Assembly (NCBI GenBank): GCA_035545855.1
Contig: DASZXK010000167.1
Location: 1-26,193 of the forward strand
Length of the DNA: 26,193 nt
Reading direction: 5' to 3'
Origin: Polyangiaceae bacterium
GTDB taxonomy: Bacteria > Myxococcota_A > Polyangia > Polyangiales > Polyangiaceae
The notes under the pieces are model-generated. The model did no database searches. It saw only the letters and a program-made list of their open reading frames with translations, and was not told the DNA's origin. Shown in pieces: positions 3,818-25,689 of this stretch. A program made the position numbers and the translations under genes. The first letter of the stretch is position 1; each line of letters begins with the position of its first letter.

Positions 3818-4942
3818 GTGTCCCCCGATAGAGTCGCTCTGCCGCTCGAGGTCGTATCGGCCGGAGAAACGGATCGCGGTATCCGCCGGAGTTCCAACGA
3901 GGATTCGCTGCTGGTCCGTTCGGACCTCGGCCTGTACGTCGTCGCGGACGGCGCGGGCGGCCACAGCGCCGGCAACGTCGCGAGCGCCATCGCGACGAGC
4001 GCCGTCGCGAAATGGTTCGACGGCTCGGAGGCCGAGTACCGGGACAAGCCTGAGATGGACGCCTTCGGGCTCTGGACGGCGGCGCGGCGGCTCTCCATCG
4101 CCGTCCAGAACGCGAACACCGCCGTCATCGACATCGCGCGAACGTCGAACCGCTACCGGGGCATGGGCACGACGATCGTCTGCGCGCTCCTCTCCCCCGA
4201 GACGGGTCGTCTCCACATCGCCCACGTCGGGGACAGCCGCTGCTACCGCCTCAGGGACGGCACGCTCGAGCTCCTGACCCACGATCACTCCATCCTGAAC
4301 GACGTGATGGAGCTCTACGCCGATCTCGACGACCAGGCCCTCGGCCGTCTGCCCCGGAAGGTCATCACGCGGGCGCTCGGGCTGGACGAACGCGTCCGCG
4401 TCGCGCTCCGGACCTACCGGGCTCTGGTCGGCGACCGGTACCTGCTCTGCTCGGACGGACTCACCGGCGAGCTCGGCGAGTCCGTCCTGGAGACGCTCGT
4501 CGGCGTGAGCGCGCCGATCCCGGACGTCGTGCGCGATCTGGTGCGTGCCGCGAAGGAAGCGGGGGGCCGGGACAACATCACGGCGCTCGTCGTGGACTGC
4601 AAGCAAGGGACGGCCTCCTCCACCAGGCAGAGCCCGCCCCGGTTCACCACGACGGCGCGATTCGGCGGGTCTCAGCCCGAGATCATCGCGAGCGAGCTCT
4701 CCGGGTCCGCGGCGGAGATCGTGTTCTTCAATCCGCCCGGCAAGGACGACAAGGCCGAGCCGCACATCAGCGTCGTCCCCGTGAACAGCGTGGACGCGCA
4801 GACGATCCGGGCGCTCGACAAGGTGGCCGGGGCCCTCCAGAACGAGGAGCGGAAGTGCGTTCGGTGCTCCGCGCTCATGAGCGGCGCCCTGGCGTGCCCC
4901 CGCTGCGGGTACACGGAGTCGGAGCCGCTGTCGCGTTCCTGA
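3818..4942 (+). CDS. PP2C-family Ser/Thr protein phosphatase with a C-terminal extension ending in a Cys4 zinc ribbon
   Basis: PP2C motifs are present: RRSSNEDS, VVADGAGGHSAGNVAS, GMGTTIV, AHVGDSRCY, LLCSDGL and GGRDNITALVV. The C-terminus has CVRCSALMSGALACPRCGY (CxxC-N9-CxxC). GTG start at 3818 is preceded by GGAGG. The ORF track start at 3641 is rejected as too far upstream of the conserved N-terminus. Confidence 0.88.
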   Translation: MSPDRVALPLEVVSAGETDRGIRRSSNEDSLLVRSDLGLYVVADGAGGHSAGNVASAIATSAVAKWFDGSEAEYRDKPEMDAFGLWTAARRLSIAVQNANTAVIDIARTSNRYRGMGTTIVCALLSPETGRLHIAHVGDSRCYRLRDGTLELLTHDHSILNDVMELYADLDDQALGRLPRKVITRALGLDERVRVALRTYRALVGDRYLLCSDGLTGELGESVLETLVGVSAPIPDVVRDLVRAAKEAGGRDNITALVVDCKQGTASSTRQSPPRFTTTARFGGSQPEIIASELSGSAAEIVFFNPPGKDDKAEPHISVVPVNSVDAQTIRALDKVAGALQNEERKCVRCSALMSGALACPRCGYTESEPLSRS

Positions 4943-5036
4943 GTCGATCCGGGGCGAGGCGACCGGGCACGTCGCGGCCGTTCCGCGCGCCTCCGGCTTG
5001 CGTTCGGCGCGATCCCCTGGGAAAACACCCGTCCCC

Positions 5037-5924
5037 ATGGCCACGACGTTCACCGGCACGTACACGGCGCTCGTGACGCCGTTCGTCGCGGACGGCTCCG
5101 CCGTCGACTGGGGCGCGTTCGATCGCCTCGTGGAAGCGCAGATAGAGGGCGGCGTGAGCGGTCTCGTGCCGTGCGGGAGCACCGGGGAGACTCCGACCCT
5201 GAGGCAGGAGGAGCAGCGCGAGGTCGTCCGCCGCACGGTCGCCGTCGCACGCGGCCGGGTCCCCGTGATTGCCGGCACCGGAACGTACGACACGACGACG
5301 ACGATCGAGGAATCCCGCGCCGCGCTCGAGGCGGGAGCGACGGCCGTGATGATCGTCATGCCGTACTACAACCGCCCGAACCAGGAGGGGCTCTTCAGGC
5401 ACGTGGAGCGCGTCGCGAAGGCCGTGCGCGGTCCGGTGGTCCTCTACAACATCCCGGTTCGCACGGGGGTGAACCTGGAGGTGGAGACGCTCCTCCGCAT
5501 CCTGGACGCTTGCGAGAACGTCGTCGGGCTGAAAGACGCTTCCGGCAACGTGCTCTATTGCCAGGCGCTCGCCGCCGCGGGAAGCCGCTGCACGGTGCTC
5601 TCCGGTGACGACGCGCTGACGGTTCCGATGATGAGCGTTGGCGCGATGGGCGTCATCTCGGTCACGTCCAACCTGTACCCGGGGGAGACGAGCGCCGTGA
5701 CCGGCGCGATGCTCTCGGGAAAGCTCCGGGAAGCGCGAGCGATGCACCTCCGGCTCCTCCCGGTCCACAGCGTGCTCTTCCTCGAGCCGAACCCCGCGCC
5801 GATCAAGGCGGCGCTGTACGCGAAGGGCCGGATGACCGCCGCGGTCCGTTTGCCGCTGGTTCCGCCGAGCGAGGGGACGCTCCGGCGGATTCTCTCCACC
5901 ATCGACGCCTTCGAGGGCAAATGA
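5037..5924 (+). CDS. dapA: 4-hydroxy-tetrahydrodipicolinate synthase
   Basis: N-terminal MATTFTGTYTALVTPF matches the DapA start (FxGsxxAxVTPf). The GSTGE and LYNIPxRTG motifs are present. The ORF is trimmed from the TTG at 4998 to the ATG at 5037. Confidence 0.95.
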   Translation: MATTFTGTYTALVTPFVADGSAVDWGAFDRLVEAQIEGGVSGLVPCGSTGETPTLRQEEQREVVRRTVAVARGRVPVIAGTGTYDTTTTIEESRAALEAGATAVMIVMPYYNRPNQEGLFRHVERVAKAVRGPVVLYNIPVRTGVNLEVETLLRILDACENVVGLKDASGNVLYCQALAAAGSRCTVLSGDDALTVPMMSVGAMGVISVTSNLYPGETSAVTGAMLSGKLREARAMHLRLLPVHSVLFLEPNPAPIKAALYAKGRMTAAVRLPLVPPSEGTLRRILSTIDAFEGK

Positions 5925-8140: not shown

Positions 8141-10465
8141 TCACGGGGAAGCGGGAGGCGTTCCCGTCTGTTCCCGCGTGAACGCGGACTTTCCCGTCAG
8201 GTACTGGAGCAGCGCGAGGGACATGAGGGGGTTCTGATCGGCGCCGCCGCCACCCCCGCCTCCGACGTACACGTCGGGGATGAGCTTCAGGTGGCTCGCG
8301 GCGATCTTCTCCACCACCTGGATCTGGCCGAAGACGTCGTTCCCCATGGCGTTCACCTGGAGCTTGTAGCTCTCGGCCGTGCTCTTGCCCTGCTCCATGA
8401 TGACACGGGCCTCGGCGAGACCCTTCTTCTCGATGGCCTCCGCGTCCGCGATCGCGTTGACGCGCGTGGCCTCGGCCGTCGCGCCGGCGGCGAGCTTCGT
8501 GGCCTTGGACGAGCCCTCCGCGCGGATCTCGTTCGCGCGCGCGTCGCCGGTCGATTTCTCGATCTCCGCGTTCGCGAGGTTCTTGGCGATTTCCACGCCT
8601 CGCTCGGACTCCACGACCTTCGGCTGCATGTTCGCCTGCGCCTTCGCGTTCTCGAGGAGCTTCCGCTCCTCCTGCGCCTGCTTCTGCGTCGCGAACGTCA
8701 TGCGCTCCTGCTCGGCGATCTGACGATCCGTCACCGTGCGCGTGAGCTCCGGCGGGAGCACGACGTCGGCGATCATCGTGTCCTTGCTCTCGATGTGGTG
8801 AATGCGGAGGACCGCCTGGATGTGCTCCTTCGCCCGGCTCTGGAGCTCCGCTCGCTTCGTGTAGAGGTCGAGCGCCTTCACGGACTGGGCGGCGTTCCGG
8901 AAGTGCGACGAGATCGCCGGTTCGAGGACCTGGGAGATCAGGTTGTCGACCGACCCCAGGTTCGCCACGACCTTCGGCGCGTCCGCCATCGCGATGTGGA
9001 TGATGACGGACACGTCCATGCTGACGTTGAAGGCGTCCGCGGTGCGGAGGGTGATCGTCTTCAGGTTCGAATCCAGCTTGTGCGCGCTGGACTCGTTGTC
9101 CGCCCAGTTCAGGAGAATCTGGGTCGTGAGAACCTTGTCTACCTTGCACACCTTGGTGTTGATGGGGTGCTTGCCGGGGCCGAGCGGTTCGGCCCAGATG
9201 CCGCGCTTGCCGTTCCGGACGATCTTCGCGTTCACGTCCGCGGACGTGGTGTCCTCCCCCTCCTCGCCGACGAAGCTCGTCACCACGGCGCACTCGCCGA
9301 TCTTCACCTCCACCATGGGGACCTGGTCGATGGACGCGAACCACGGGTTGATCGCGTAGTTGCCCGAGCGGAGCACCGGGATCTGCAGGCCCTTCTGCCC
9401 GCCCGCGGCGAGGAACGCCGCCGGGTTCTGGAAGTTGTTGTGGATCTCGAGCGAGATCTCGTCCGCGGCGATCTTGGCCGCGTCGCTGATCGGCCGGCCC
9501 TCGAGCACCGTGACGATGCCGACGGAGTCCGCCCCGATGTGCGTCCACGGGACGACCGCGCTGATCACGAAGAGAGACGTGTTGATGCGGTACGTGCCCG
9601 GCATCAAGACGTCGAGCTGGTGTCCCTTCTGCCCCCCGTTCCGGAGGAACCCGTTCCCGTCCTCGAAGTTCGAGTGGCCCTCGATCTTCCGACCGAGGAG
9701 GTTCCCTTCCGCGATGCGCGCCCCGTCCATCGCCGTCACGAGGCCGACGTGGCCGTTCGGGATGACCGTCTGCTCGCGCTTGTCGACCCGGAAGAGCGCC
9801 GTGTTGATGCGATAGCTCCCGGGCGGGAGCACCTTCACCTGCGGTCCCTTCTGCCCGCCGTTGTGGAGGAACGCGTCCGCGTCCTGATAGGCGTCGCACT
9901 CGACGGGGTCCGCGAAGATGCGTCCGACGGGGCACGGCTGTCCCGCGACGGCTTCCACGACGCCGATCTCCGTCTCGTCGATGAGGACGGCGTTCGTGAT
10001 CTCCGTCGCGAAGAGCTCCGGATTGATCTGGTACTCGCCCGGCGGCAGGATCGCGAGCTGCGGACCCTTCTCGCCGCCGTTCTTCAGGAACGCCTCGCCG
10101 TCCTGGAAGAGGTTGCACGGCACCGTCTTCGCGAAGAACTGCCCGGCGGGCATCGGCATGCCGGTGATGGCCCTGACGATTCCGATCTGGTTCGTCCCGA
10201 TGGAGATGAACTTGTGCTTGCTCACCTTGTAGATGAACGGAATGAGGAAATGCACGCCGGGTCCGAGCGTCCGCGCCTGGACGCCCACCTCGTGACGGAG
10301 CGCGACGGTCCTGCCGTCCGCCATCTGGGCGCCGAACCAGCGCCGCTCGAGCGTGATGAACTGGTCGCCGCGCGCGATCGCGATGCTCGAGAACAGGAAG
10401 ACCAGCCCGCAGAGCCCGCCGAGCACGATGGCCACGTTTTCCAGCGTGAGCATTCCCTCCAACAT
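8141..10465 (-). CDS. Flotillin/SPFH (band 7) family membrane protein with a reiterated N-terminal module
   Basis: N-terminal TM (VAIVLGGLCGLVFLFSSIAIA). SPFH beta segment TLGPGVHFLIPFIYKV. C-terminal SPFH helix plus a long Glu/Ala/Lys-rich coiled-coil flotillin region and a GGGGGGG tail. ATG at 10465 is preceded by GGAGGAATC. Between the first SPFH strands and the helical half lie 4-5 repeats of about 75 aa. Confidence 0.85.
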   Translation of the reverse strand: MLEGMLTLENVAIVLGGLCGLVFLFSSIAIARGDQFITLERRWFGAQMADGRTVALRHEVGVQARTLGPGVHFLIPFIYKVSKHKFISIGTNQIGIVRAITGMPMPAGQFFAKTVPCNLFQDGEAFLKNGGEKGPQLAILPPGEYQINPELFATEITNAVLIDETEIGVVEAVAGQPCPVGRIFADPVECDAYQDADAFLHNGGQKGPQVKVLPPGSYRINTALFRVDKREQTVIPNGHVGLVTAMDGARIAEGNLLGRKIEGHSNFEDGNGFLRNGGQKGHQLDVLMPGTYRINTSLFVISAVVPWTHIGADSVGIVTVLEGRPISDAAKIAADEISLEIHNNFQNPAAFLAAGGQKGLQIPVLRSGNYAINPWFASIDQVPMVEVKIGECAVVTSFVGEEGEDTTSADVNAKIVRNGKRGIWAEPLGPGKHPINTKVCKVDKVLTTQILLNWADNESSAHKLDSNLKTITLRTADAFNVSMDVSVIIHIAMADAPKVVANLGSVDNLISQVLEPAISSHFRNAAQSVKALDLYTKRAELQSRAKEHIQAVLRIHHIESKDTMIADVVLPPELTRTVTDRQIAEQERMTFATQKQAQEERKLLENAKAQANMQPKVVESERGVEIAKNLANAEIEKSTGDARANEIRAEGSSKATKLAAGATAEATRVNAIADAEAIEKKGLAEARVIMEQGKSTAESYKLQVNAMGNDVFGQIQVVEKIAASHLKLIPDVYVGGGGGGGADQNPLMSLALLQYLTGKSAFTREQTGTPPASP

Positions 10466-10579
10466 GATTCCTCCGAGTAAAAGGGACGGACGCGCGCCAA
10501 GGACGAGGGCACGCGAGAACCGAGGAGCGTCCGTCACCCCCGGGCGGGGTTCAAGAGGGTTTCCGTGGAACGGGACGTT

Positions 10580-11212
10580 TCAAGGGACGAGCGCCGAAAG
10601 GATCGGAGCGGGATCCTTTCCGAGCCCGTCGCTTCGCACCAGGACGCGCCCCTGGGCGTCCAGGAGGACGATCGCCGTCGAGTGGTAGAATTCGCCGTTG
10701 TCGAGCTTCCTGTAGCGGATGCCGAGCACGGCGGCGAGCTGTCGCGCGTCGTCTTCGGCGGCGCTCGCGAACGTCCATCGCGAAGGGTCGAGCGAGCGGC
10801 GCGCCATGAGCCGCGTGAGCACCTCGGGTGTGTCCCTCGCGGCGTCGAAGCTCACCATCAAGATCCTGAGGTTCTCGCGCTCGGGCTCCGGGACCAGGCG
10901 ATCGATCTTCTCCAGGTCGCTCGTGAGCATCGGGCACACGTTCGGGCAGCCCGCGTAGAACATGGAGATCAACACGGGGTGGCCACGGAACTCGTCGAGC
11001 GGCTGCCGTTTCCCGTGCTCGTCCGAGATCTGGATCTGGAGGTCGTAGACGGAGACGCCGTTCGCCGCGTCCTCCGCCGGAGGCCGTACCGGCGGCGTCG
11101 GGGCGGCGCTCGGGGACGGAGCTTCGGTCGCGGCGTCCGTCGAGGGGGCTCGTCCGCAGGCGACGAGGCCGGAGAGCAGGGCGGCGAGGGTAGCGGTACG
11201 GAACGGGTTCAC
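10580..11212 (-). CDS. SCO1/SenC-family thioredoxin-like copper chaperone, lipoprotein
   Basis: CxxxC motif FYAGCPNVCP with a downstream conserved His (YHSTAIV). Signal peptide plus lipobox LSGLVAC. The GTG start at 11212 overlaps the stop of the upstream gene (GTGA). Confidence 0.85.
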   Translation of the reverse strand: MNPFRTATLAALLSGLVACGRAPSTDAATEAPSPSAAPTPPVRPPAEDAANGVSVYDLQIQISDEHGKRQPLDEFRGHPVLISMFYAGCPNVCPMLTSDLEKIDRLVPEPERENLRILMVSFDAARDTPEVLTRLMARRSLDPSRWTFASAAEDDARQLAAVLGIRYRKLDNGEFYHSTAIVLLDAQGRVLVRSDGLGKDPAPILSALVP

Positions 11213-12000
11213 GGTTTCCTCTCGATCTCTTTCACGCACCGGAAACCGAGCCGGGACGTCGTGTAGCGGGCTTCGAGCGAACTCCGGAATGCGATGCGCA
11301 TGAACGCCGCGTAGTCGCTGGGGTTCTGGGCGTCGGCACCGGCGCCGCCGCAGAAGCGCGTCTGGTCGACGACCCCTTTCTCGCGGGAGTCCATCGTGAC
11401 CAGGCTCGCGCCGAAATCGTAGACCCACTCCCACACGAGGCCGTGGAGGTCCCGGATGCCCCAGAAGTTCGGCTTCGAACCGCCCACGTCGGCGAGCGGC
11501 CTGGCGGACGTCGGTTCGGCGTACCAGGCGAGCACGCGTTCGGTCCACGCCGGGTCATCGGCTCCCCGCGCGGACGAGTCACTCGCCGCGGCGGCGAGCT
11601 CCCACTGCCGTTCGGTGGGAAGCTCGGCCCCGCGCGCCTTGCAGTACGCCTTCGCCGAAAACCAGCTCACGTTCGTCACGGGAGCCGCCGGACGAACGGA
11701 CGCGCCGAGGCGTTCGGCGTCTTCCCAGTGCGCGAGGTAGCCGAAATCCGCGAAGAGAGGCTTCACCCGATCGCGCCGCCACTCGGGCCGCTCGTGCACG
11801 AACGCGAGGAAGGCCTGGTTCGTGACGGGCGTGACGTCCATGTAGAACGCGGGCACCTTCACCGTGCGCTCCGTCGGCGAGGCGGGGTAGAGCGGCTCGT
11901 ACACCCCGGGGCCGACGCGCGCCATGCCCCGCGGCGCCCGCTCGCCGAGCGCGGGAGCCGCGAGGAGCACGCCGAGGAGCGCGATCCGCCAGGGGATCAA
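11209..12000 (-). CDS. nirV: NirV-like protein of the formylglycine-generating-enzyme (FGE)-sulfatase family
   Basis: FGE/SUMF1-type motifs: [28 protein letters not shown], and [22 protein letters not shown]-terminal signal-like [15 protein letters not shown]. Lies immediately downstream of nirK, as in known nirK-nirV operons. The start is uncertain. A candidate TTG at 12000 overlaps the nirK stop (TTGA). Confidence 0.72.
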
Positions 12001-13505
12001 ATGCCTGCTCCGCTCGAGCCCGAAGCCCGGACGCGCGCGACCTCGGCGGGCGAGACCACACCGTGGTCGTTCCCCCACGAGTTCAGGACGTACGTGATGA
12101 CGTTCGCGATGTCGTCGTCGCCGAGGTGGCTCCATGGCGGCATCGTCGAGTTGAACGTCGCTCCGTTCACGCGGATCGGACCCGTGAAGCCGTTCAGGAC
12201 CGTCGAGATGATCTTCGTCTTCTCGTTCTTCACGAGGTAGTCCGAGCCTGCGAGCGGGGGGAACGTGTTCGGCATCCCGAGGCCGGTCGCCTGGTGGCAG
12301 GTGATGCACGTCGTCGCGAACACGGATTTGCCGGCCGCGATCTGCTGCTCCTTGGTGAGAGGCCCCGAGGTGGGCTGCGTCGCGGCGAGGATCTGCGCCG
12401 GAGCCGCGGACTTTTCTGCCACGTAGGCCGAGTCCGCCTCCTTGCCCGAATAGACCACCGCGTCTTCGGGCCCGGAGACCTTGAGCGTTCCGACGGCGCC
12501 CTTGTTGAACGCGCGGAAGAGGGAATGGTCGACGATCGCGTACGAGCCGGGAACCTGGAGCTTGAACTCGGCCATCGTCGTGCCCCCGGCGGGCACCATC
12601 GTCGTCTGGACGTTCTCCTGGACCTTCGAGCCGCCCTCCGGATAGATGCGGTCGAAGATCTCCCCGATCACGTGGAAGCTCGACGTGAGGTTCGGTCCAC
12701 CGACGCCGAAGTAGATCCGCACGGTGTCGCCGACGTAGGCCTTCAGCGCCTTGTCGCCGAGGAGCGAGCCCTCGGCTCCGTTGAAGACGACGTACGTGGG
12801 TCGTTCGTCGATGCCCTTCTGCATGTCGAACGCTTGAAGACCCTTCTCGTGGTACTTCCCCGTGGTGTAGACGTCGCCCTGCATGACGTAGAACTCGCGG
12901 TCCACCGGGGGGAGGCCCTCCGGCGGCTCGACGAGGATCATCCCGTACATTCCGTTCGCCACGTGCATCGGCACCGGCGCCGTCGCGCAGTGGTAGACGA
13001 ACAGGCCCGCGTTCAGCGCGCGGAACGTGAACTTCGATTCGTGTCCCGGCGCCGTGAAGCTCGACGCCGCGCCTCCGCCGGGGCCGGTCACGGCGTGGAG
13101 GTCGATGTTGTGCGGCATCTTGCTCGAGGCGTCGTTCTGGAGGTGGAACTCGACGACGTCCCCCTGGCGCACGCGGATGAAGCTTCCGGGCACCGTGCCT
13201 CCGAACGTCCAGAAGTCGTACTGGACGCCGTCCGCCACCGGCAACGTGACCTCCTTCACGGCGAGCTTCACCACGACGTGCGCGGGCTTCGTGCGGTTCG
13301 TCGCAGGCGGCACGTTCGGAGGCGAGGTGAGCTGCGCGAGGATCGGTTCACCCGTCGGAAGACTCGTGACGTCGAGCTCCGGCTTCGCGGGCGTCGTCGC
13401 CGACGGTTTCGGGCGTACGGTATGTTCGGAAGGAGTCTCGCTGCATCCGAGCGACAGCAGAGCGAGGGAGGAGAGCGCGGTTCCAAATCGTCCGACGTGT
13501 TTCAT
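11997..13505 (-). CDS. nirK: Copper-containing nitrite reductase NirK with a fused C-terminal mono-haem cytochrome c domain
   Basis: Cupredoxin motifs PHNIDLHAV and [18 protein letters not shown] supply the type 1/type 2 Cu ligands (H, C, H, M). The C-terminal domain carries the CITCH haem-binding motif. N-terminal signal peptide with Cys (LLSLGC), so it may be a lipoprotein like Neisseria AniA. ATG at 13505 (a GTG lies immediately upstream). Confidence 0.9.
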
Positions 13506-13757
13506 CACGGGCGAGCAAAAGCACCCGCCGTGCCACGGGCGATTTTCCTGCGTCTCGCGATGGAGCCGATGTGCGCGGGGCGCAGATCCTTCGCGCTCGC
13601 GCAGCGGGGTCGTGCGCAGAACGTGGTCACGTGCCCTACGGGGCGCACCCGGTGCGCCTGCCCCGTCGATCCTCTTCGAACGCCGAGAGCAGATTCTGCG
13701 CGTTCGCACGAAATGAGATCCGTCGCCCGTCGAGCCGCGAGGACCGGATCCGGAGCT

Positions 13758-14147
13758 CTACTCGCCCGTGGGACGCGGTGGGTCCGGCGGAGCGCCCGCG
13801 TCGCCGCTCGCCGGCTCGGTTCCGGGCCGCTTCAGCCCGGCGCCGAACGAAAGGGGTTCGTGCTCCGGCTTCGGTGGCGATGGCTTCGCGGACGACCCCG
13901 AAGGCTTCGGCGCGGATCGCGGAATGAGCCCGGCCTTCCACGCCGAGCCGGTCGACGGAGGACCCTGCCGGAAGAGCGCCGCGTCCCCCGGACGCGTTCC
14001 ACGGCTACCCGGCGGATCGAGCTGACTCGACCCGTAGCACTGCGTGCCGTACTTCGGCCCCGACTGACAGTACGTGTCCACGCAGGCGGCGACGAGCGCG
14101 GACGAGACGCAGAGAGACAGGACGCCCGTCAGCGAAGCGGCTCTCAC
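13758..14147 (-). CDS. Small secreted Cys-rich lipoprotein with a Pro-rich C-terminus, hypothetical
   Basis: GTG at 14147 gives a signal peptide with lipobox (RAASLTGVLSLCVSSALVAAC) followed by VDTYCQSGPKYGTQCYGSS. Third-codon GC read by hand is about 85%. It shares orientation with nirK and is directly upstream of it. The full track ORF (to 14336) is rejected because it would abut the divergent gene's start. Confidence 0.45.
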   Translation of the reverse strand: MRAASLTGVLSLCVSSALVAACVDTYCQSGPKYGTQCYGSSQLDPPGSRGTRPGDAALFRQGPPSTGSAWKAGLIPRSAPKPSGSSAKPSPPKPEHEPLSFGAGLKRPGTEPASGDAGAPPDPPRPTGE

Positions 14148-16195: not shown

Positions 16196-16300
16196 GCTCG
16201 CTCTCGTCGCTCGGGGCGCGTTTCCCGAAAGGAAAACGCTGAGATGGACCCGTCGAACCTGATCCGGCTCGTACCGGCGTAGGGAAGGCGATCCGAGGGT
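16196..16300 (+). promoter_or_regulatory. TPP (thiamine pyrophosphate) riboswitch, THI element, in the thiC leader
   Basis: Matches the THI-box consensus: GGGGCGCG ... CGCUGAGA ... GACCCGUCGAACCUGAUCCGGCUCGUACCGGCGUAGGGAAGG. The CUGAGA, ACCUGAUC, the pyrimidine-sensing stem and GCGUAGGGA are all present. Lies 40-140 nt upstream of the thiC ATG, with the AAGGAG Shine-Dalgarno downstream of it. Confidence 0.9.
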
Positions 16301-16339
16301 CGTCTTTTCGCGCCGGGTGAGCCCCCAAGGAGCCGAAAG

Positions 16340-18121
16340 ATGACCGACCGCACGTTGCCTCTCCGCGGAGCCGAAAACCCCACGAGCCGGAAGCTCGGCA
16401 CGAACCCCGGATCCTTCGCGAACCGCGCCGACGTCGGCGGACCGCTCTCCTACTCGTCGCCGGACACGCCCGGGATGCCCGCGCCGAGCGAGAAGACGGC
16501 GTGGGACTTTCTGCCGGACGGCTGGGTGAAGCTCCCGGGCGAGGACCGGGCGACCGCGCCCGCCGGCTTCGTCCCGGTGACGCAGCTCGAGCACGCGCGG
16601 CTCGGCGTCGTCACTCCGGAGATGAAGCGTGTCGCCGAGCGAGAGCCGCACCTCACGGCGGAGCAGATCCGGCGCGAGGTCGCGAGCGGGCGCATGATCA
16701 TTCCGGCGAATCGCGTTCACCTTCGTCATTCGCTCGACCCGATGGGCATTGGTCGCGCCACGAAGACGAAGATCAACGCCAACATGGGCGCGTCTCCCGT
16801 CTCGAGCGACACGGAATCCGAAGTGGAGAAGCTCCGCTGGGCCGAGCGCTGGGGCTCGGACACGGTGATGGACCTTTCCACGGGGGGCGACATCGACGCC
16901 TGTCGCGAGGCCATCGTCCGGAACTCCCGCGTGCCGATCGGCACCGTGCCCATCTACTCGATGATCCTCGGCCGGAAGATCGAGGACCTGACGGAAGAGG
17001 TGATCCTCGAGGGGATTCGCCATCAGGCGGAGCAAGGCGTGGACTACTTCACCGTGCACGCCGGGGTCCTCCGCGCGCACCTCCCGTTCGTGAAGGACCG
17101 TCTCATCGGCATCGTGAGCCGCGGCGGATCCCTCCTCGCGAAGTGGATGCTCGTGCACGGGAAGGAGAACCCGATGTACGCGCGCTTCGAGGACATCTGC
17201 GACATCATGCGACAGTACGACGTCTCCTTCTCGCTCGGGGACGGCCTCCGTCCGGGCGGGCTCGGGGACGCCTCCGACGTCGCGCAGCTCTCCGAGCTCG
17301 AGACGCTCGGCGAGCTCACGGAGCGCGCCTGGCGCCGCGGGTGCCAGGTGATGGTGGAAGGGCCGGGGCACGTGCCGTTCGATCAGATCGAGTACAACAT
17401 GAAGCTCCAGCGCCGCGTGTGTCACGGCGCGCCGTTCTACGTCCTCGGGCCGCTCGTGACGGACGTGTTCCCCGGGTACGACCACATCACTTCTTGCATC
17501 GGCGCGACCGCCGCGGCGTATCACGGCGCGAGCCTCCTCTGCTACGTGACGCCGAAGGAGCACGTCGGCCTCCCGAAGAAGGACGACGTGAAGCAGGGCG
17601 CCGTCGCGTACAAGATCGCGGCGCACGCGGCGGACGTCGCGCTCGGCATCCCCGGTTCCCGCGACTGGGACGACGAGCTCACGCAGGCCCGCGCGGCCCT
17701 CAACTGGGAGAAGCACTTCGAGCTCGCGTTCGACGGCGAGTACGCGAGGGCGCTCCACGACGAGGACCTCGACGTGGACACGGACTTCTGCGGCATGTGC
17801 GGCCACGACTGGTGCTCGGTCCGCATCTCGAAGGAGATCGCGGAGTTCGGGAGCGGCAAGGCGGCCGGGTTCTCGCGCGCGGAGGTCACGAAGAGCGCCG
17901 CGCTCACGCCGGAGCAGCAGGCGGTCCTCGAGAAGCGCGGGGTGCTCTCGCCGGAAGAGATCCACCGCCTTGCGTCCAAGACGCGGAAGGCCGTCGGTGC
18001 CGACAAGGGCGCGAAGGCCGCGTGTCACAGCGACTTCGCGGAGCCGGAGGACGCCCAGCGCGTCCAGGAGAAGCGGCTCGTTCGCCTCCGGATCGCGCCG
18101 CCGGCACCGGACGCGGAGTGA
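16340..18121 (+). CDS. thiC: Phosphomethylpyrimidine synthase
   Basis: 593 aa with conserved ThiC blocks throughout and the C-terminal radical-SAM-type cluster motif CGMCGHDWCS. AAGGAG Shine-Dalgarno 7 nt upstream. Preceded by the TPP riboswitch. Confidence 0.96.
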   Translation: MTDRTLPLRGAENPTSRKLGTNPGSFANRADVGGPLSYSSPDTPGMPAPSEKTAWDFLPDGWVKLPGEDRATAPAGFVPVTQLEHARLGVVTPEMKRVAEREPHLTAEQIRREVASGRMIIPANRVHLRHSLDPMGIGRATKTKINANMGASPVSSDTESEVEKLRWAERWGSDTVMDLSTGGDIDACREAIVRNSRVPIGTVPIYSMILGRKIEDLTEEVILEGIRHQAEQGVDYFTVHAGVLRAHLPFVKDRLIGIVSRGGSLLAKWMLVHGKENPMYARFEDICDIMRQYDVSFSLGDGLRPGGLGDASDVAQLSELETLGELTERAWRRGCQVMVEGPGHVPFDQIEYNMKLQRRVCHGAPFYVLGPLVTDVFPGYDHITSCIGATAAAYHGASLLCYVTPKEHVGLPKKDDVKQGAVAYKIAAHAADVALGIPGSRDWDDELTQARAALNWEKHFELAFDGEYARALHDEDLDVDTDFCGMCGHDWCSVRISKEIAEFGSGKAAGFSRAEVTKSAALTPEQQAVLEKRGVLSPEEIHRLASKTRKAVGADKGAKAACHSDFAEPEDAQRVQEKRLVRLRIAPPAPDAE

Positions 18122-23085: not shown

Positions 23086-25689
23086 TCAAACACGGGCGCG
23101 CCGTCTGCTGCGTAGCAGCAGGGCCGCGACGAGCCCCCACGCCGCGGTGGCCGACGAAGTCTTCGACTGTACTGTGCGGCACCCGCACCCACCGGGATCG
23201 ACCGGGAGATGGCTCTGATCGCCCGGCAGCCCGCTAGAATCTGGTGCCGCGCTCGCGTCGTGGCGGTGTCCAGCATCGGGTCGTGAAGGGAGCCCGCCCG
23301 CTTCGCGCGGCATGGATGAATCGAGCCTACTCACGGAGGAGTCGCGGCTCGCCACGACGGCGTCGCGGACTCCGGAGTCCGTTGGCTTCTTGCCGGCGTC
23401 TCCGTCGGCACTCGCGTCTTCCGGGACGGCGCTGTCCGCGATTGCCGCATCGTGCGTGCCGGTCGAGACTGCTCCATCACGGCAACAGTCATCCCCCGTG
23501 TCGCCTGGCCGAGCGTCGCCGGGACTCGCATCGACAGTCGACTCGAGTCCGCCATCAGGAGCGAGGCCGAACAAGCGCAGACCGATCCGTGGTGTCGGAC
23601 CCGCCACGGATGAGAATGCGAACAGCGCTTCCCCTTGAATTCGGCTCGCTCCAGATGTCCACGGGAAAAAGGGCGATGAATCGAAGGTCGCGGGGGGGCC
23701 GAATTCTTCGGCGCTTTCGCTCGCGATGGTCACGCGGCCGCGAGCCGCGCGTCCGTCCCCACCCACGACGAACAACCGTCGACCGTCCGCGATGACGATG
23801 GAGCTGGAGGGCAAGGAATCGCTGAAAACGGGCGTTCCGAAAGTCCAGGATCCCGCTGTCTTCGTCAGAGTCGCGAGTCCGGTGCTGCAGGACAGCACGA
23901 AGCCGGCCCCGACCGGGGCGATTCCGCTGGCCGAAGAGCTGCACGGGGAGCCCAGCGCCTCGGCCGAAGCCCCGCCGGATTCCAGGACGTAGAGCGCACC
24001 GTTGTCGCTGAATGCTTCAGCGGAGCCGTTTTCCGAGAAGGCCGTGATCTGATATGGCGTTCCCGGAATCCCGCGCTCCGGTGCCGCGCCGCCATCCGAA
24101 GAAAGGTCAGTGCGTGCGAGGAAGCCGCCGGAGAAGCTCTTGCATCCATCGCCGCCCTCCCAGTACTCGTGCAGGCCGCCCAAAGTCCCGATCTGGTGTG
24201 CGCCGATGCCATCGAACGGCCCTGCGACGAGCAATGGTCGTGCATCGAGCAAACTCCCATTCGCGGCCATGCGAAGCGCGACGACGGCATCCTTCAGCAG
24301 ACCCCGTTCGATCCAGGTGATCCAGTAGGTCGATCCATCGAACGCGACCTGCGGCTCGACCTGGTCCATGAACGGTTCAGCCGTCCGGCGGGGGAGAACG
24401 AGGGGCGGCGAATCCAGGAAGACGCCCGACGGGGTGACGCGTGTTGCAACGATTTCCGAGCGGCGCCCGCGCAGGCTTTCCCACGCAACGAGGTAGGTCG
24501 AGCCGTCTGTCGCGACGACGGGGGCTGTCTGGCTATCCTCCGCCGTGCGACCGCCGATTTCGACCTCCCGGATGGGAGTTCCGTCCTTCGCGATCCGCAC
24601 CGCGATCGAGTCGTGTGGGCCACGCCAGGTCGCGAGATGGGTGAATCCGTCGAACGCGATCATCGATTCCGTGCCCGTCGCCCAGGGCGACGACGAAACC
24701 GGCGTGACCCCGGAAACCGCACCGTTCGCGATCCGCACGGCAACGACGGTGGAGTCATCACGCGCGAGCACGACGAAGGTTGATCCGTCCGAGTCAGCGG
24801 CGCCGACTCGTTGATCGGGCGCGAGCGTCAGCATCGGCGAGATCGGGGTCCCGTCTTTTGGATCTAGGAACACCGCGCGCACGGCGGTGACCGGTCCGGC
24901 CTTGCACCACACGGATCCATCTGGGTCGGGCGTCGGCGCGGTTGCCGTCCAGGCGTATAGGCATTCGGCGTTCGTGCACGCGAGCGCGGCGGGTTCATAG
25001 AACGCCGTCTCGCCCAGCGGAATGTCCTGCTCGATCTCCGCGCCGTCGGTCTCGCGGACACCCCGAAGTCGCAACTCCTGGCTCGAACAGGCGGTGTCCG
25101 CGCAGGCACGCGCCGCATACCAGTAGTTGCCGCCGCTGAACGCACGACCGTCGATGCGTAGAGTAAAGAGCCCGATGGCCGTGCTTCCGAGGTACGTTCC
25201 GAACGAGTCGAAACGGTTGACGGAACCGTCCCACAAGGCGAATCCGTCAGCCCCGGCAACCGGTAGAGAACCCTGGACGATGGCAACCGGCGTCGTGCTA
25301 CCGGATTGATCGAGCCAAAAGGGCTTCGTCGACATCGCAAGGAACCGGGAACCAATGAAGGCGACTCCGCTTCCACCTCCCGGAATGCCTACGACGTCCA
25401 GGTTCGTGCCGTTTGCATCGATTCGATGGAGGCGGATCCCGGAATCGGTCTGGAGTTCCACGAGCGTCACGCCGCCGCCGGCTGCGATTCCGATCGGCCA
25501 GCTACGGGGTGCGGTGGGCACGGATGCGCCCGGCGTACGCCACTCCTTTGACACGACCGGCACCTCCAAGAGGGGCGCTCTCGTGGTTCCTGTTTCCACG
25601 GACGATCGCGGCAAGGGATCGGCGCAGCCCGAGAGTATCAGGGCGCCGGTCAGTGCCCAGATCCCTTGCAATCGAACCTCCTCGGGCAT
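23086..25689 (-). CDS. Large secreted lipoprotein with internal ~50-aa repeats and a C-terminal MYXO-CTERM-type sorting tail
   Basis: N-terminal signal plus lipobox (WALTGALILSGC). Repeats carry a DGSTYLVAW ... VAxRIxxDGT consensus. The C-terminus is GGCGCRTVQ ... AAWGLVAALLLRSRRRARV (GCGC, hydrophobic stretch, then a poly-Arg tail). 867 aa. Confidence 0.8.
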   Translation of the reverse strand: MPEEVRLQGIWALTGALILSGCADPLPRSSVETGTTRAPLLEVPVVSKEWRTPGASVPTAPRSWPIGIAAGGGVTLVELQTDSGIRLHRIDANGTNLDVVGIPGGGSGVAFIGSRFLAMSTKPFWLDQSGSTTPVAIVQGSLPVAGADGFALWDGSVNRFDSFGTYLGSTAIGLFTLRIDGRAFSGGNYWYAARACADTACSSQELRLRGVRETDGAEIEQDIPLGETAFYEPAALACTNAECLYAWTATAPTPDPDGSVWCKAGPVTAVRAVFLDPKDGTPISPMLTLAPDQRVGAADSDGSTFVVLARDDSTVVAVRIANGAVSGVTPVSSSPWATGTESMIAFDGFTHLATWRGPHDSIAVRIAKDGTPIREVEIGGRTAEDSQTAPVVATDGSTYLVAWESLRGRRSEIVATRVTPSGVFLDSPPLVLPRRTAEPFMDQVEPQVAFDGSTYWITWIERGLLKDAVVALRMAANGSLLDARPLLVAGPFDGIGAHQIGTLGGLHEYWEGGDGCKSFSGGFLARTDLSSDGGAAPERGIPGTPYQITAFSENGSAEAFSDNGALYVLESGGASAEALGSPCSSSASGIAPVGAGFVLSCSTGLATLTKTAGSWTFGTPVFSDSLPSSSIVIADGRRLFVVGGDGRAARGRVTIASESAEEFGPPATFDSSPFFPWTSGASRIQGEALFAFSSVAGPTPRIGLRLFGLAPDGGLESTVDASPGDARPGDTGDDCCRDGAVSTGTHDAAIADSAVPEDASADGDAGKKPTDSGVRDAVVASRDSSVSRLDSSMPREAGGLPSRPDAGHRHDASAAPDSSGLPGDQSHLPVDPGGCGCRTVQSKTSSATAAWGLVAALLLRSRRRARV

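Follow-up and report, generated by a model that had tools for sequence, protein, structure and literature searches.

Several described systems come close to the locus reported here. The three-domain nitrite reductases of Ralstonia pickettii (RpNiR, PDB 3ZIY) and Pseudoalteromonas (PhNiR, 2ZOO) have a cupredoxin core followed by a C-terminal cytochrome c domain. In Rhodobacter sphaeroides 2.4.3, Phaeobacter and Sinorhizobium, the copper nitrite reductase gene nirK is directly followed on the same strand by nirV, the product of which belongs to the formylglycine-generating enzyme (FGE) family PF03781 and has repeatedly been described as being without an assigned function (PMC10356946). Proteins of the SCO1/SenC/PrrC type act together with PCuAC in the assembly of the CuA and cbb3 oxidases. 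In Neisseria, the PCuAC protein AccA inserts copper into the type 1 (T1) site of the nitrite reductase AniA; many bacteria with NirK have no AccA, and an 'alternative, unidentified Cu metallochaperone' has been weighed against thermodynamic explanations (PMC13006917). Here we analyze the complete 26,193-base contig of a Polyangiaceae metagenome-assembled genome (about 69% G+C; the whole stretch is called the window below), on the reverse strand of which nirK, a gene for an FGE-like protein and a gene for a SCO protein follow one another and, judging by their order, overlap and conservation, are one operon. We put the probability at roughly 0.6 that this locus is a three-gene nirK operon in which the SCO and FGE-like proteins supply NirK with copper or help in its copper loading. 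A description of such a nirK/FGE-like/SCO unit was not found in a search of the literature; the papers on Bacillus and Chloroflexi that it yielded name SenC only alongside oxidases or nitric oxide reductase.

The unit runs on the reverse strand from nirK (positions 11,997 to 13,505; HVU04681) through the FGE-like gene (11,209 to 12,000) to the SCO gene (10,580 to 11,212; HVU04679). NCBI annotates the three genes identically on the contig, with the entries HVU04679 to HVU04683 covering the genes of the locus and their neighbours. The G+C content at third codon positions (GC3) is 0.89 in each of the three and thus normal for this contig, on which real genes typically have a GC3 of about 0.9 and a corresponding value at second positions (GC2) of about 0.5. 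At the first junction, TTGA (11,997 to 12,000), the TGA stop codon of nirK (11,997 to 11,999) overlaps the TTG start codon of the FGE-like gene (11,998 to 12,000), and at the second, GTGA (11,209 to 11,212), the TGA stop codon of the FGE-like gene (11,209 to 11,211) overlaps the GTG start codon of the SCO gene (11,210 to 11,212). Both 4-base overlaps had been noticed in a first-pass annotation of the window made from the sequence alone; they are indeed present, and the start codons called by NCBI concur. A single overlap of this kind is commonplace in operons. In a consensus scan, no terminator-like site was found at or between the gene junctions, and the sole such site inside the operon lies on the forward strand within nirK.

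A scan with the FGE-like gene that kept one genome per species yielded at least 591 loci. The conservation counts given in the following refer to the best 80 of these, the junction counts to 79 loci and the search for the small upstream open reading frame (ORF) described further below to 88 related loci. The best 80 carry about ten phylum-level names, with Myxococcota, Gammaproteobacteria and Betaproteobacteria, Bacteroidota (including cultured Flavobacteriia), Ignavibacteria, Verrucomicrobiota (Chthoniobacter flavus), Planctomycetota, Nitrospiraceae, Methylomirabilia, Acidobacteriota and Neomarinimicrobiota among the names found. In every one of these loci with enough room, a NirK core is encoded upstream on the same strand. 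A SCO gene follows downstream in all 77 loci that extend far enough, 76 of them recognized by tblastn and one (L089) by inspection (CKVAC ... FSHS), while the three others end at most 430 bases past the FGE-like gene. The cytochrome c domain was seen in all but four of these loci, mostly within the reading frame that also encodes the NirK core. Two-domain, AniA-like NirK proteins without cytochrome c are encoded at L029, L042, L060 and L089, and these genes still precede an FGE-like and a SCO gene. The SCO gene is therefore tied to the copper enzyme and not to the haem domain. The same finding led us to reject SCO as a reductant of the CxxCH haem motif of the cytochrome c domain.

The triad also occurs on the metagenomic contigs L001, L002-L005 and P0046, as well as in Azoarcus sp. 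KH32C and on 118 Ralstonia megaplasmids, with the genes labelled nirK, formylglycine-generating enzyme family and SCO family. It is thus not special to Myxococcota or to the window. The cluster of Azoarcus KH32C and that of R. solanacearum, aniA-RSp1502-RSp1501 (RSp1501-RSp1503), have the same gene order as the window and the same 4-base overlap between the FGE-like and SCO genes, and their FGE-like proteins share 44-47% identity with that of the window. In the literature, the downstream genes of R. solanacearum are named only as 'putative signal peptide-encoding genes' (PMC4453514). While the Ralstonia cluster adjoins norB in a denitrification island, that of the window stands among housekeeping genes. 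Flanking genes differ in every lineage and only the triad is kept together. A comparison of gene neighbourhoods, which the first-pass annotation had suggested for nirK loci of Myxococcota, bears out the SCO gene as a conserved partner, whereas the small lipoprotein gene that had been included in the same comparison is not conserved. Some loci of Ignavibacteria and Bacteroidota have an extra gene between the FGE-like and SCO genes, which encodes, for example, a secreted protein of 198 amino acids (L033, 5,792 to 6,388) or a porin-like protein of 468 amino acids (L047, 5,665 to 7,071).

The two junctions are conserved to different degrees. Between the FGE-like and SCO genes, a 4-base ATGA or GTGA overlap is present in 40 of the 79 loci and a 1-base overlap in five more, and the distance is at most 31 bases in 73. 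The junction between nirK and the FGE-like gene is looser, with a 4-base overlap in 11 of 79 loci and a gap of at most 30 bases in 67. The distances between the FGE-like and SCO genes were computed from the start codon nearest to the upstream stop codon, which biases them towards short values. With one gene order throughout the related loci and a 4-base overlap of the FGE-like and SCO genes in 40 of 79, we consider the arrangement to be selected. By the same token of overlapping frames, we infer that translation of the FGE-like and SCO genes is coupled, as the first-pass annotation had implied for the unit as a whole.

The nirK product, a protein of 502 amino acids, is assigned to clade II by its SSFHV motif and carries a C-terminal tethered cytochrome c. 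Its best start is the ATG at 13,505, as in the sequence-identical NCBI entry, and not the GTG at 13,508; the stop codon lies at 11,997. The protein scores 352 bits against the curated equivalog model TIGR02376, above the cut-off of 296.3. It aligns with RpNiR over residues 50-496 (660 bits), and in this alignment all of its copper ligands are identical to those of RpNiR. The cupredoxin core is 72% identical to that of R. solanacearum NirK. The cytochrome c domain (12,075 to 12,341; PF00034, E = 2.3e-12; residues 390-478 of a 503-residue translation) contains the haem motif CITCH (12,294 to 12,308), aligns with the cytochrome domain of RpNiR and resides on the same polypeptide as the core, in the order seen in RpNiR and PhNiR. 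By these criteria of sequence, the nirK product is a nitrite reductase of the three-domain, cytochrome c-fused class, and the profile searches agree with what had been read from the sequence at first pass. The protein differs from RpNiR only in a lipobox-containing signal peptide and a longer N-terminal linker rich in proline and alanine. The signal peptide (13,443 to 13,505) ends in LSLG-C (Cys21), which matches the lipoprotein pattern as such, and a lipobox-like motif is found in 52 of 79 homologous NirK N-termini. The earlier suggestion that NirK may be lipidated fits this pattern, and the protein is probably lipid-anchored.

The FGE-like gene starts with TTG, as called by NCBI, and encodes 263 amino acids with a Sec-type signal peptide, so that the product is predicted to be secreted. 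It matches PF03781 with an E value of 4e-34 (118.9 bits) over profile positions 11-255 of 255, and its placement in the FGE family proposed at first pass is hereby corroborated. Thousands of relatives exist at 55-75% identity. Taken at face value, the strong profile match together with a slight similarity to FGEs of known structure (E about 1e-10) could mean that the protein is a true formylglycine-generating enzyme, or another oxidase, that modifies NirK or a further exported protein. We regard this as scarcely credible. Alignment to the S. coelicolor FGE sequence YLCHDSYCNRYR with its LCHDSYC motif revealed that the window protein has other residues in place of both cysteines of the active-site, Cu(I)-binding pair, every NCBIfam equivalog model falls well short of its cut-off, and neither a sulfatase gene nor an FGE target motif is present nearby. 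Because both catalytic cysteines are replaced, the protein cannot, by its sequence, be a formylglycine-generating enzyme and is a non-FGE member of the FGE fold. The only cysteines conserved in its family are C217 (87 of 87 proteins) and C255 (84 of 87); H186 and a WEW motif are also kept.

The designation of this protein as NirV-like in the first-pass annotation holds for its position directly behind nirK on the same strand and for its PF03781 membership, but not as a statement of orthology with classical NirV. With NirV from Phaeobacter as the representative, in place of the R. sphaeroides sequence, identity is 28% over 130 residues (pairwise E = 5e-5), which is no better than the similarity to true FGEs. 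When plasmid collections were searched with tblastn, the window type was found mainly in Ralstonia, Azoarcus and Neisseria and classical NirV mainly in Phaeobacter, Sinorhizobium, Rhizobium and Agrobacterium. Sinorhizobium is the sole organism name common to both searches and appeared once in that with the window type, at 25% identity (E = 3e-7). An FGE-family match in Rhizobium rhizogenes was rejected as a nirK neighbour, as it sits in a Bat/VWA cluster. Classical NirV is moreover membrane-anchored, partners a different NirK clade, whose two-domain members are 34-38% identical to the window core, and has no SCO gene downstream, in contrast to the window type. On these sequence comparisons, the window protein belongs to a subfamily separate from classical NirV, and 'NirV-like' is a fair description of its position and fold. 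That the function of NirV is undefined, as stated at first pass, agrees with the literature (PMC10356946, PMC4770552).

The third gene encodes a SCO1/SenC-family lipoprotein of 210 amino acids with the lipobox LVA-C. The first-pass assignment to this family is confirmed by the match to PF02630 (E = 3.2e-16, 60 bits, Pfam gathering cut-off 22.8) and by the best matches in the PDB, which are SCO proteins (4HDE, 3ME7, 2K6V and 4WBJ). The copper-binding Cys-x3-Cys motif, CPNVC (10,934 to 10,948), and the distal histidine, His177, are present, i.e., the predicted copper site is intact. All 82 nirK-linked SCO proteins compared have C89, C93, P94, D127 and H177 in common, despite an overall identity that falls to about 26%. 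The protein shares the thioredoxin fold, Cys-x3-Cys plus histidine and membrane or lipid anchoring with the SCO1/SenC/PrrC proteins of oxidase assembly. Whereas the latter serve cytochrome oxidase and are paired with PCuAC, the window SCO is encoded next to an enzyme with copper of types 1 and 2 and is paired with a protein of the FGE fold. In the Ignavibacteria and Bacteroidota loci that have an additional gene in the unit, the SCO proteins carry an N-terminal HSCCS motif, and the SCO protein of Arenibacter (L056) has an N-terminal CPMHC...CSVCKM that resembles an extra metal-binding module.

SCO proteins can be thiol-disulfide oxidoreductases instead of copper donors, and some bacterial members have been reported to act in redox processes or in protection from oxidative stress. 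In the window, SCO, perhaps with the FGE-like protein, could accordingly work as a periplasmic thiol-disulfide oxidoreductase that keeps cysteines of NirK reduced or protects them from nitrosative or oxidative damage by the nitric oxide (NO) formed by NirK. Its thioredoxin fold would suit such a task, as would a low-scoring match to AhpC/TSA (PF00578, E = 1.4e-4, below the cut-off) and the retention of only two conserved cysteines in the FGE-like protein. A pure oxidoreductase, however, has no need of a histidine, and His177 is as invariant as the two cysteines in all 82 proteins; a role as reductase of the CxxCH haem motif is improbable in view of the SCO genes next to NirK proteins without cytochrome c. 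We thus consider a purely redox function unlikely.

The strict association of the triad argues for copper loading of NirK by its two neighbours, and the following sequence of events can be envisaged. The mRNA for nirK, the FGE-like gene and the SCO gene would be a single transcript, and the overlapping start codon would couple translation of the FGE-like and SCO proteins and so fix their ratio. NirK would be exported and probably lipid-anchored, with its own cytochrome c domain as electron donor. The lipid-anchored SCO protein would bind copper at Cys-x3-Cys and histidine and pass it to the type 1 center, the type 2 center or both in newly exported apo-NirK; alternatively or in addition, it may keep the cysteine ligand of the type 1 site reduced until copper arrives. 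The FGE-fold protein would be a non-catalytic partner, serving as an adaptor to NirK or as a relay, while the small upstream ORF would play no conserved part. The scheme draws on the analogy with SCO and PCuAC at the CuA center of cytochrome oxidase and with AccA at Neisseria AniA. AccA is a dedicated periplasmic copper loader of a clade II NirK and in this respect comparable to the role proposed for SCO, but it is of another protein family and its gene sits at a different genomic location, whereas the window has SCO inside the operon. A gene for PCuAC is absent from the window.

The Neisseria genus itself offers a further comparison. In N. gonorrhoeae (L008; NZ_CP119140.1), an ORF of 251 codons directly behind aniA (4,935 to 5,690) encodes an FGE-like protein that matches PF03781 with an E value of 1.7e-36 and is 41% identical to the window protein. 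It is unannotated in NZ_CP119140.1 and goes unmentioned in the papers on AccA and AniA that were consulted. Neisseria, which possesses AccA, is the sole relative in which we saw no SCO gene after the FGE-like gene.

A number of observations weigh against copper loading by the SCO and FGE-like proteins. NirK maturation has been described as needing no other genes (PMC4770552), disruption of classical nirV is reported to have left nitrate reduction unaffected (PMC1262709), and the addition of RSp1501 and RSp1502 to an aniA construct of R. solanacearum did not improve partial complementation (PMC4453514). No copper site is recognisable in the FGE-like protein, with the FGE cysteine pair gone and only C217 and C255 conserved, SCO proteins need not be copper donors, as outlined above, and the junction between nirK and the FGE-like gene varies among related loci. 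The results on nirV and on RSp1501/RSp1502, together with the activity of NirK in heterologous hosts without such genes and the reconstitution of AniA with Cu2+ alone (PMC13006917), would also suit a scenario in which the FGE-like and SCO proteins are passengers under shared regulation, with a general task in periplasmic copper homeostasis or in tolerance of NO or nitrite stress, and are dispensable for NirK. Strict synteny with nirK over about ten phylum-level names, often with overlapping frames, would be unusual for passengers, and it is the triad alone that stays together while its flanks change from lineage to lineage. We consider passenger genes improbable, slightly more so than a purely redox role.

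We infer the role of the SCO and FGE-like proteins in NirK copper maturation from sequence, both for the window and for the homologous clusters. The link between copper enzyme, FGE-like protein and copper chaperone that had been drawn from the window at first pass is strengthened, because the triad is kept in 77 of 77 loci. A functional linkage of NirK, FGE-like protein and SCO is likely and far better founded than the particular roles assigned to them above. In a more far-reaching version, which we put forward tentatively and with less confidence than copper loading in the window as such, FGE-fold protein and SCO would constitute a two-component system dedicated to inserting copper into clade II NirK, extending from Betaproteobacteria to Myxococcota, Bacteroidota and Verrucomicrobiota. 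The FGE fold would act as adaptor or copper relay from SCO to apo-NirK, and the pair would be the alternative metallochaperone considered for bacteria in which AccA is lacking.

Upstream of nirK, the first-pass annotation had listed a small cysteine-rich lipoprotein as a possible fourth member of the operon. The ORF (13,758 to 14,147, reverse strand; HVU04682, 'hypothetical protein') encodes 129 amino acids, has the same orientation as nirK and possesses a plausible lipobox-like signal, ALVAA-C. It does not lie directly upstream, being separated from nirK by 252 bases that include a T-run hairpin, and its mature product has just two cysteines besides that of the lipid anchor. With a GC3 of 0.82 and a GC2 of 0.68, its coding signal falls below that of the three genes. 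The product matches no Pfam or NCBIfam family, a search of 5.8 billion protein clusters returned only the ORF itself, and tblastn gave no match in the 88 related loci. The genes upstream of nirK differ from relative to relative and encode, for instance, PFK, a CBS-domain protein, an EAL regulator, an aldehyde dehydrogenase or DUF2249/norB. The orientation, the signal, the call by NCBI and the GC3 value speak for a fourth functional member, but with neither a homologue nor a constant upstream neighbour we judge this to be very unlikely. As far as can be told from sequence, the ORF is not a conserved part of the unit and is possibly a genuine lineage-specific gene.

The gap between this orphan ORF and nirK contains two further elements. 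On the reverse strand, a GC-rich hairpin followed by CTTTTGCT (13,522 to 13,541), 17 bases upstream of the nirK ATG, may be a terminator or a structure of the 5' leader. Three sites combining a hairpin with a T-run were counted in the region, compared with 2.2 ± 1.9 expected from shuffled sequence; they are thus not enriched and provide weak evidence. A 17-base palindrome, GGCGCACC-G-GGTGCGCC (13,642 to 13,658), may serve as a regulator site or form a weak hairpin. A scan for sigma-70-like promoters gave none, a result that is uninformative for a myxobacterial contig of 69% G+C.

The nirK unit is isolated on the contig, since the latter carries no nor, nos or regulator genes. The housekeeping remainder of the contig encodes a GMC oxidoreductase, a GTPase, PP2C, DapA and DapB, Lgt, a Band 7 protein, ThiC, Hsp33, GlyS and an aminotransferase. 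Divergent to the unit, HVU04683 (14,339 to 15,400, forward strand) encodes a 'hypothetical protein' of 353 amino acids with a lipoprotein signal, a match above cut-off (27.7 bits) to PF03712, the C-terminal domain of copper type II ascorbate-dependent monooxygenases, and the motifs HH..H, HxH and M. This would add another putative copper protein next to the nirK unit. The gene was rejected as a member, as tblastn found it in none of the related loci; on the metagenomic contig P0046, a Cu2_monoox_C gene lies some 4 kb upstream of nirK. On the other side, a gene on the same strand for an SPFH/Band 7 protein of 798 amino acids (8,141 to 10,537) starts 42 bases past the SCO stop codon (about 115 from its first ATG). 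Read-through from the nirK unit could reach it. Membership was rejected here as well, the gene being found in no related locus by tblastn. The prolipoprotein diacylglyceryl transferase gene lgt (PF01790; 7,041 to 8,006, reverse strand) lies about 2.5 kb from the genes for the predicted lipoproteins NirK and SCO, which is probably a coincidence. An ordinary TPP riboswitch (RF00059, 70.5 bits; 16,202 to 16,303, forward strand) precedes thiC (16,340 to 18,121), and an ORF of 867 codons (23,086 to 25,689, reverse strand) has no Pfam match.

Taken by itself, the window locus is nothing unusual, being one ordinary copy, annotated already, of a cluster that is very widespread. Three of the four genes grouped together in the first-pass annotation stand, along with a reasonable hypothesis about them; the small ORF does not. 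The value of the finding lies in the pattern at the level of the family, i.e., the near-universal synteny, the invariant copper site of SCO, the independence from the cytochrome c domain and the existence of two distinct NirV-type subfamilies. The label 'NirV' spans at least two distant subfamilies of the FGE fold, each attached to a different NirK clade, and to our knowledge no function has been assigned to NirV since 2001. We likewise know of no proven copper chaperone for NirK other than AccA. Nearly always kept in those clade II NirK loci that the FGE-like gene retrieved, the triad is a candidate for the missing chaperone, and one that is easily testable, because its carriers R. solanacearum and R. 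pickettii are genetically tractable and their NirK structure is solved. If the two-component copper-insertion system should prove true, it would provide the first function for a NirV-type protein.

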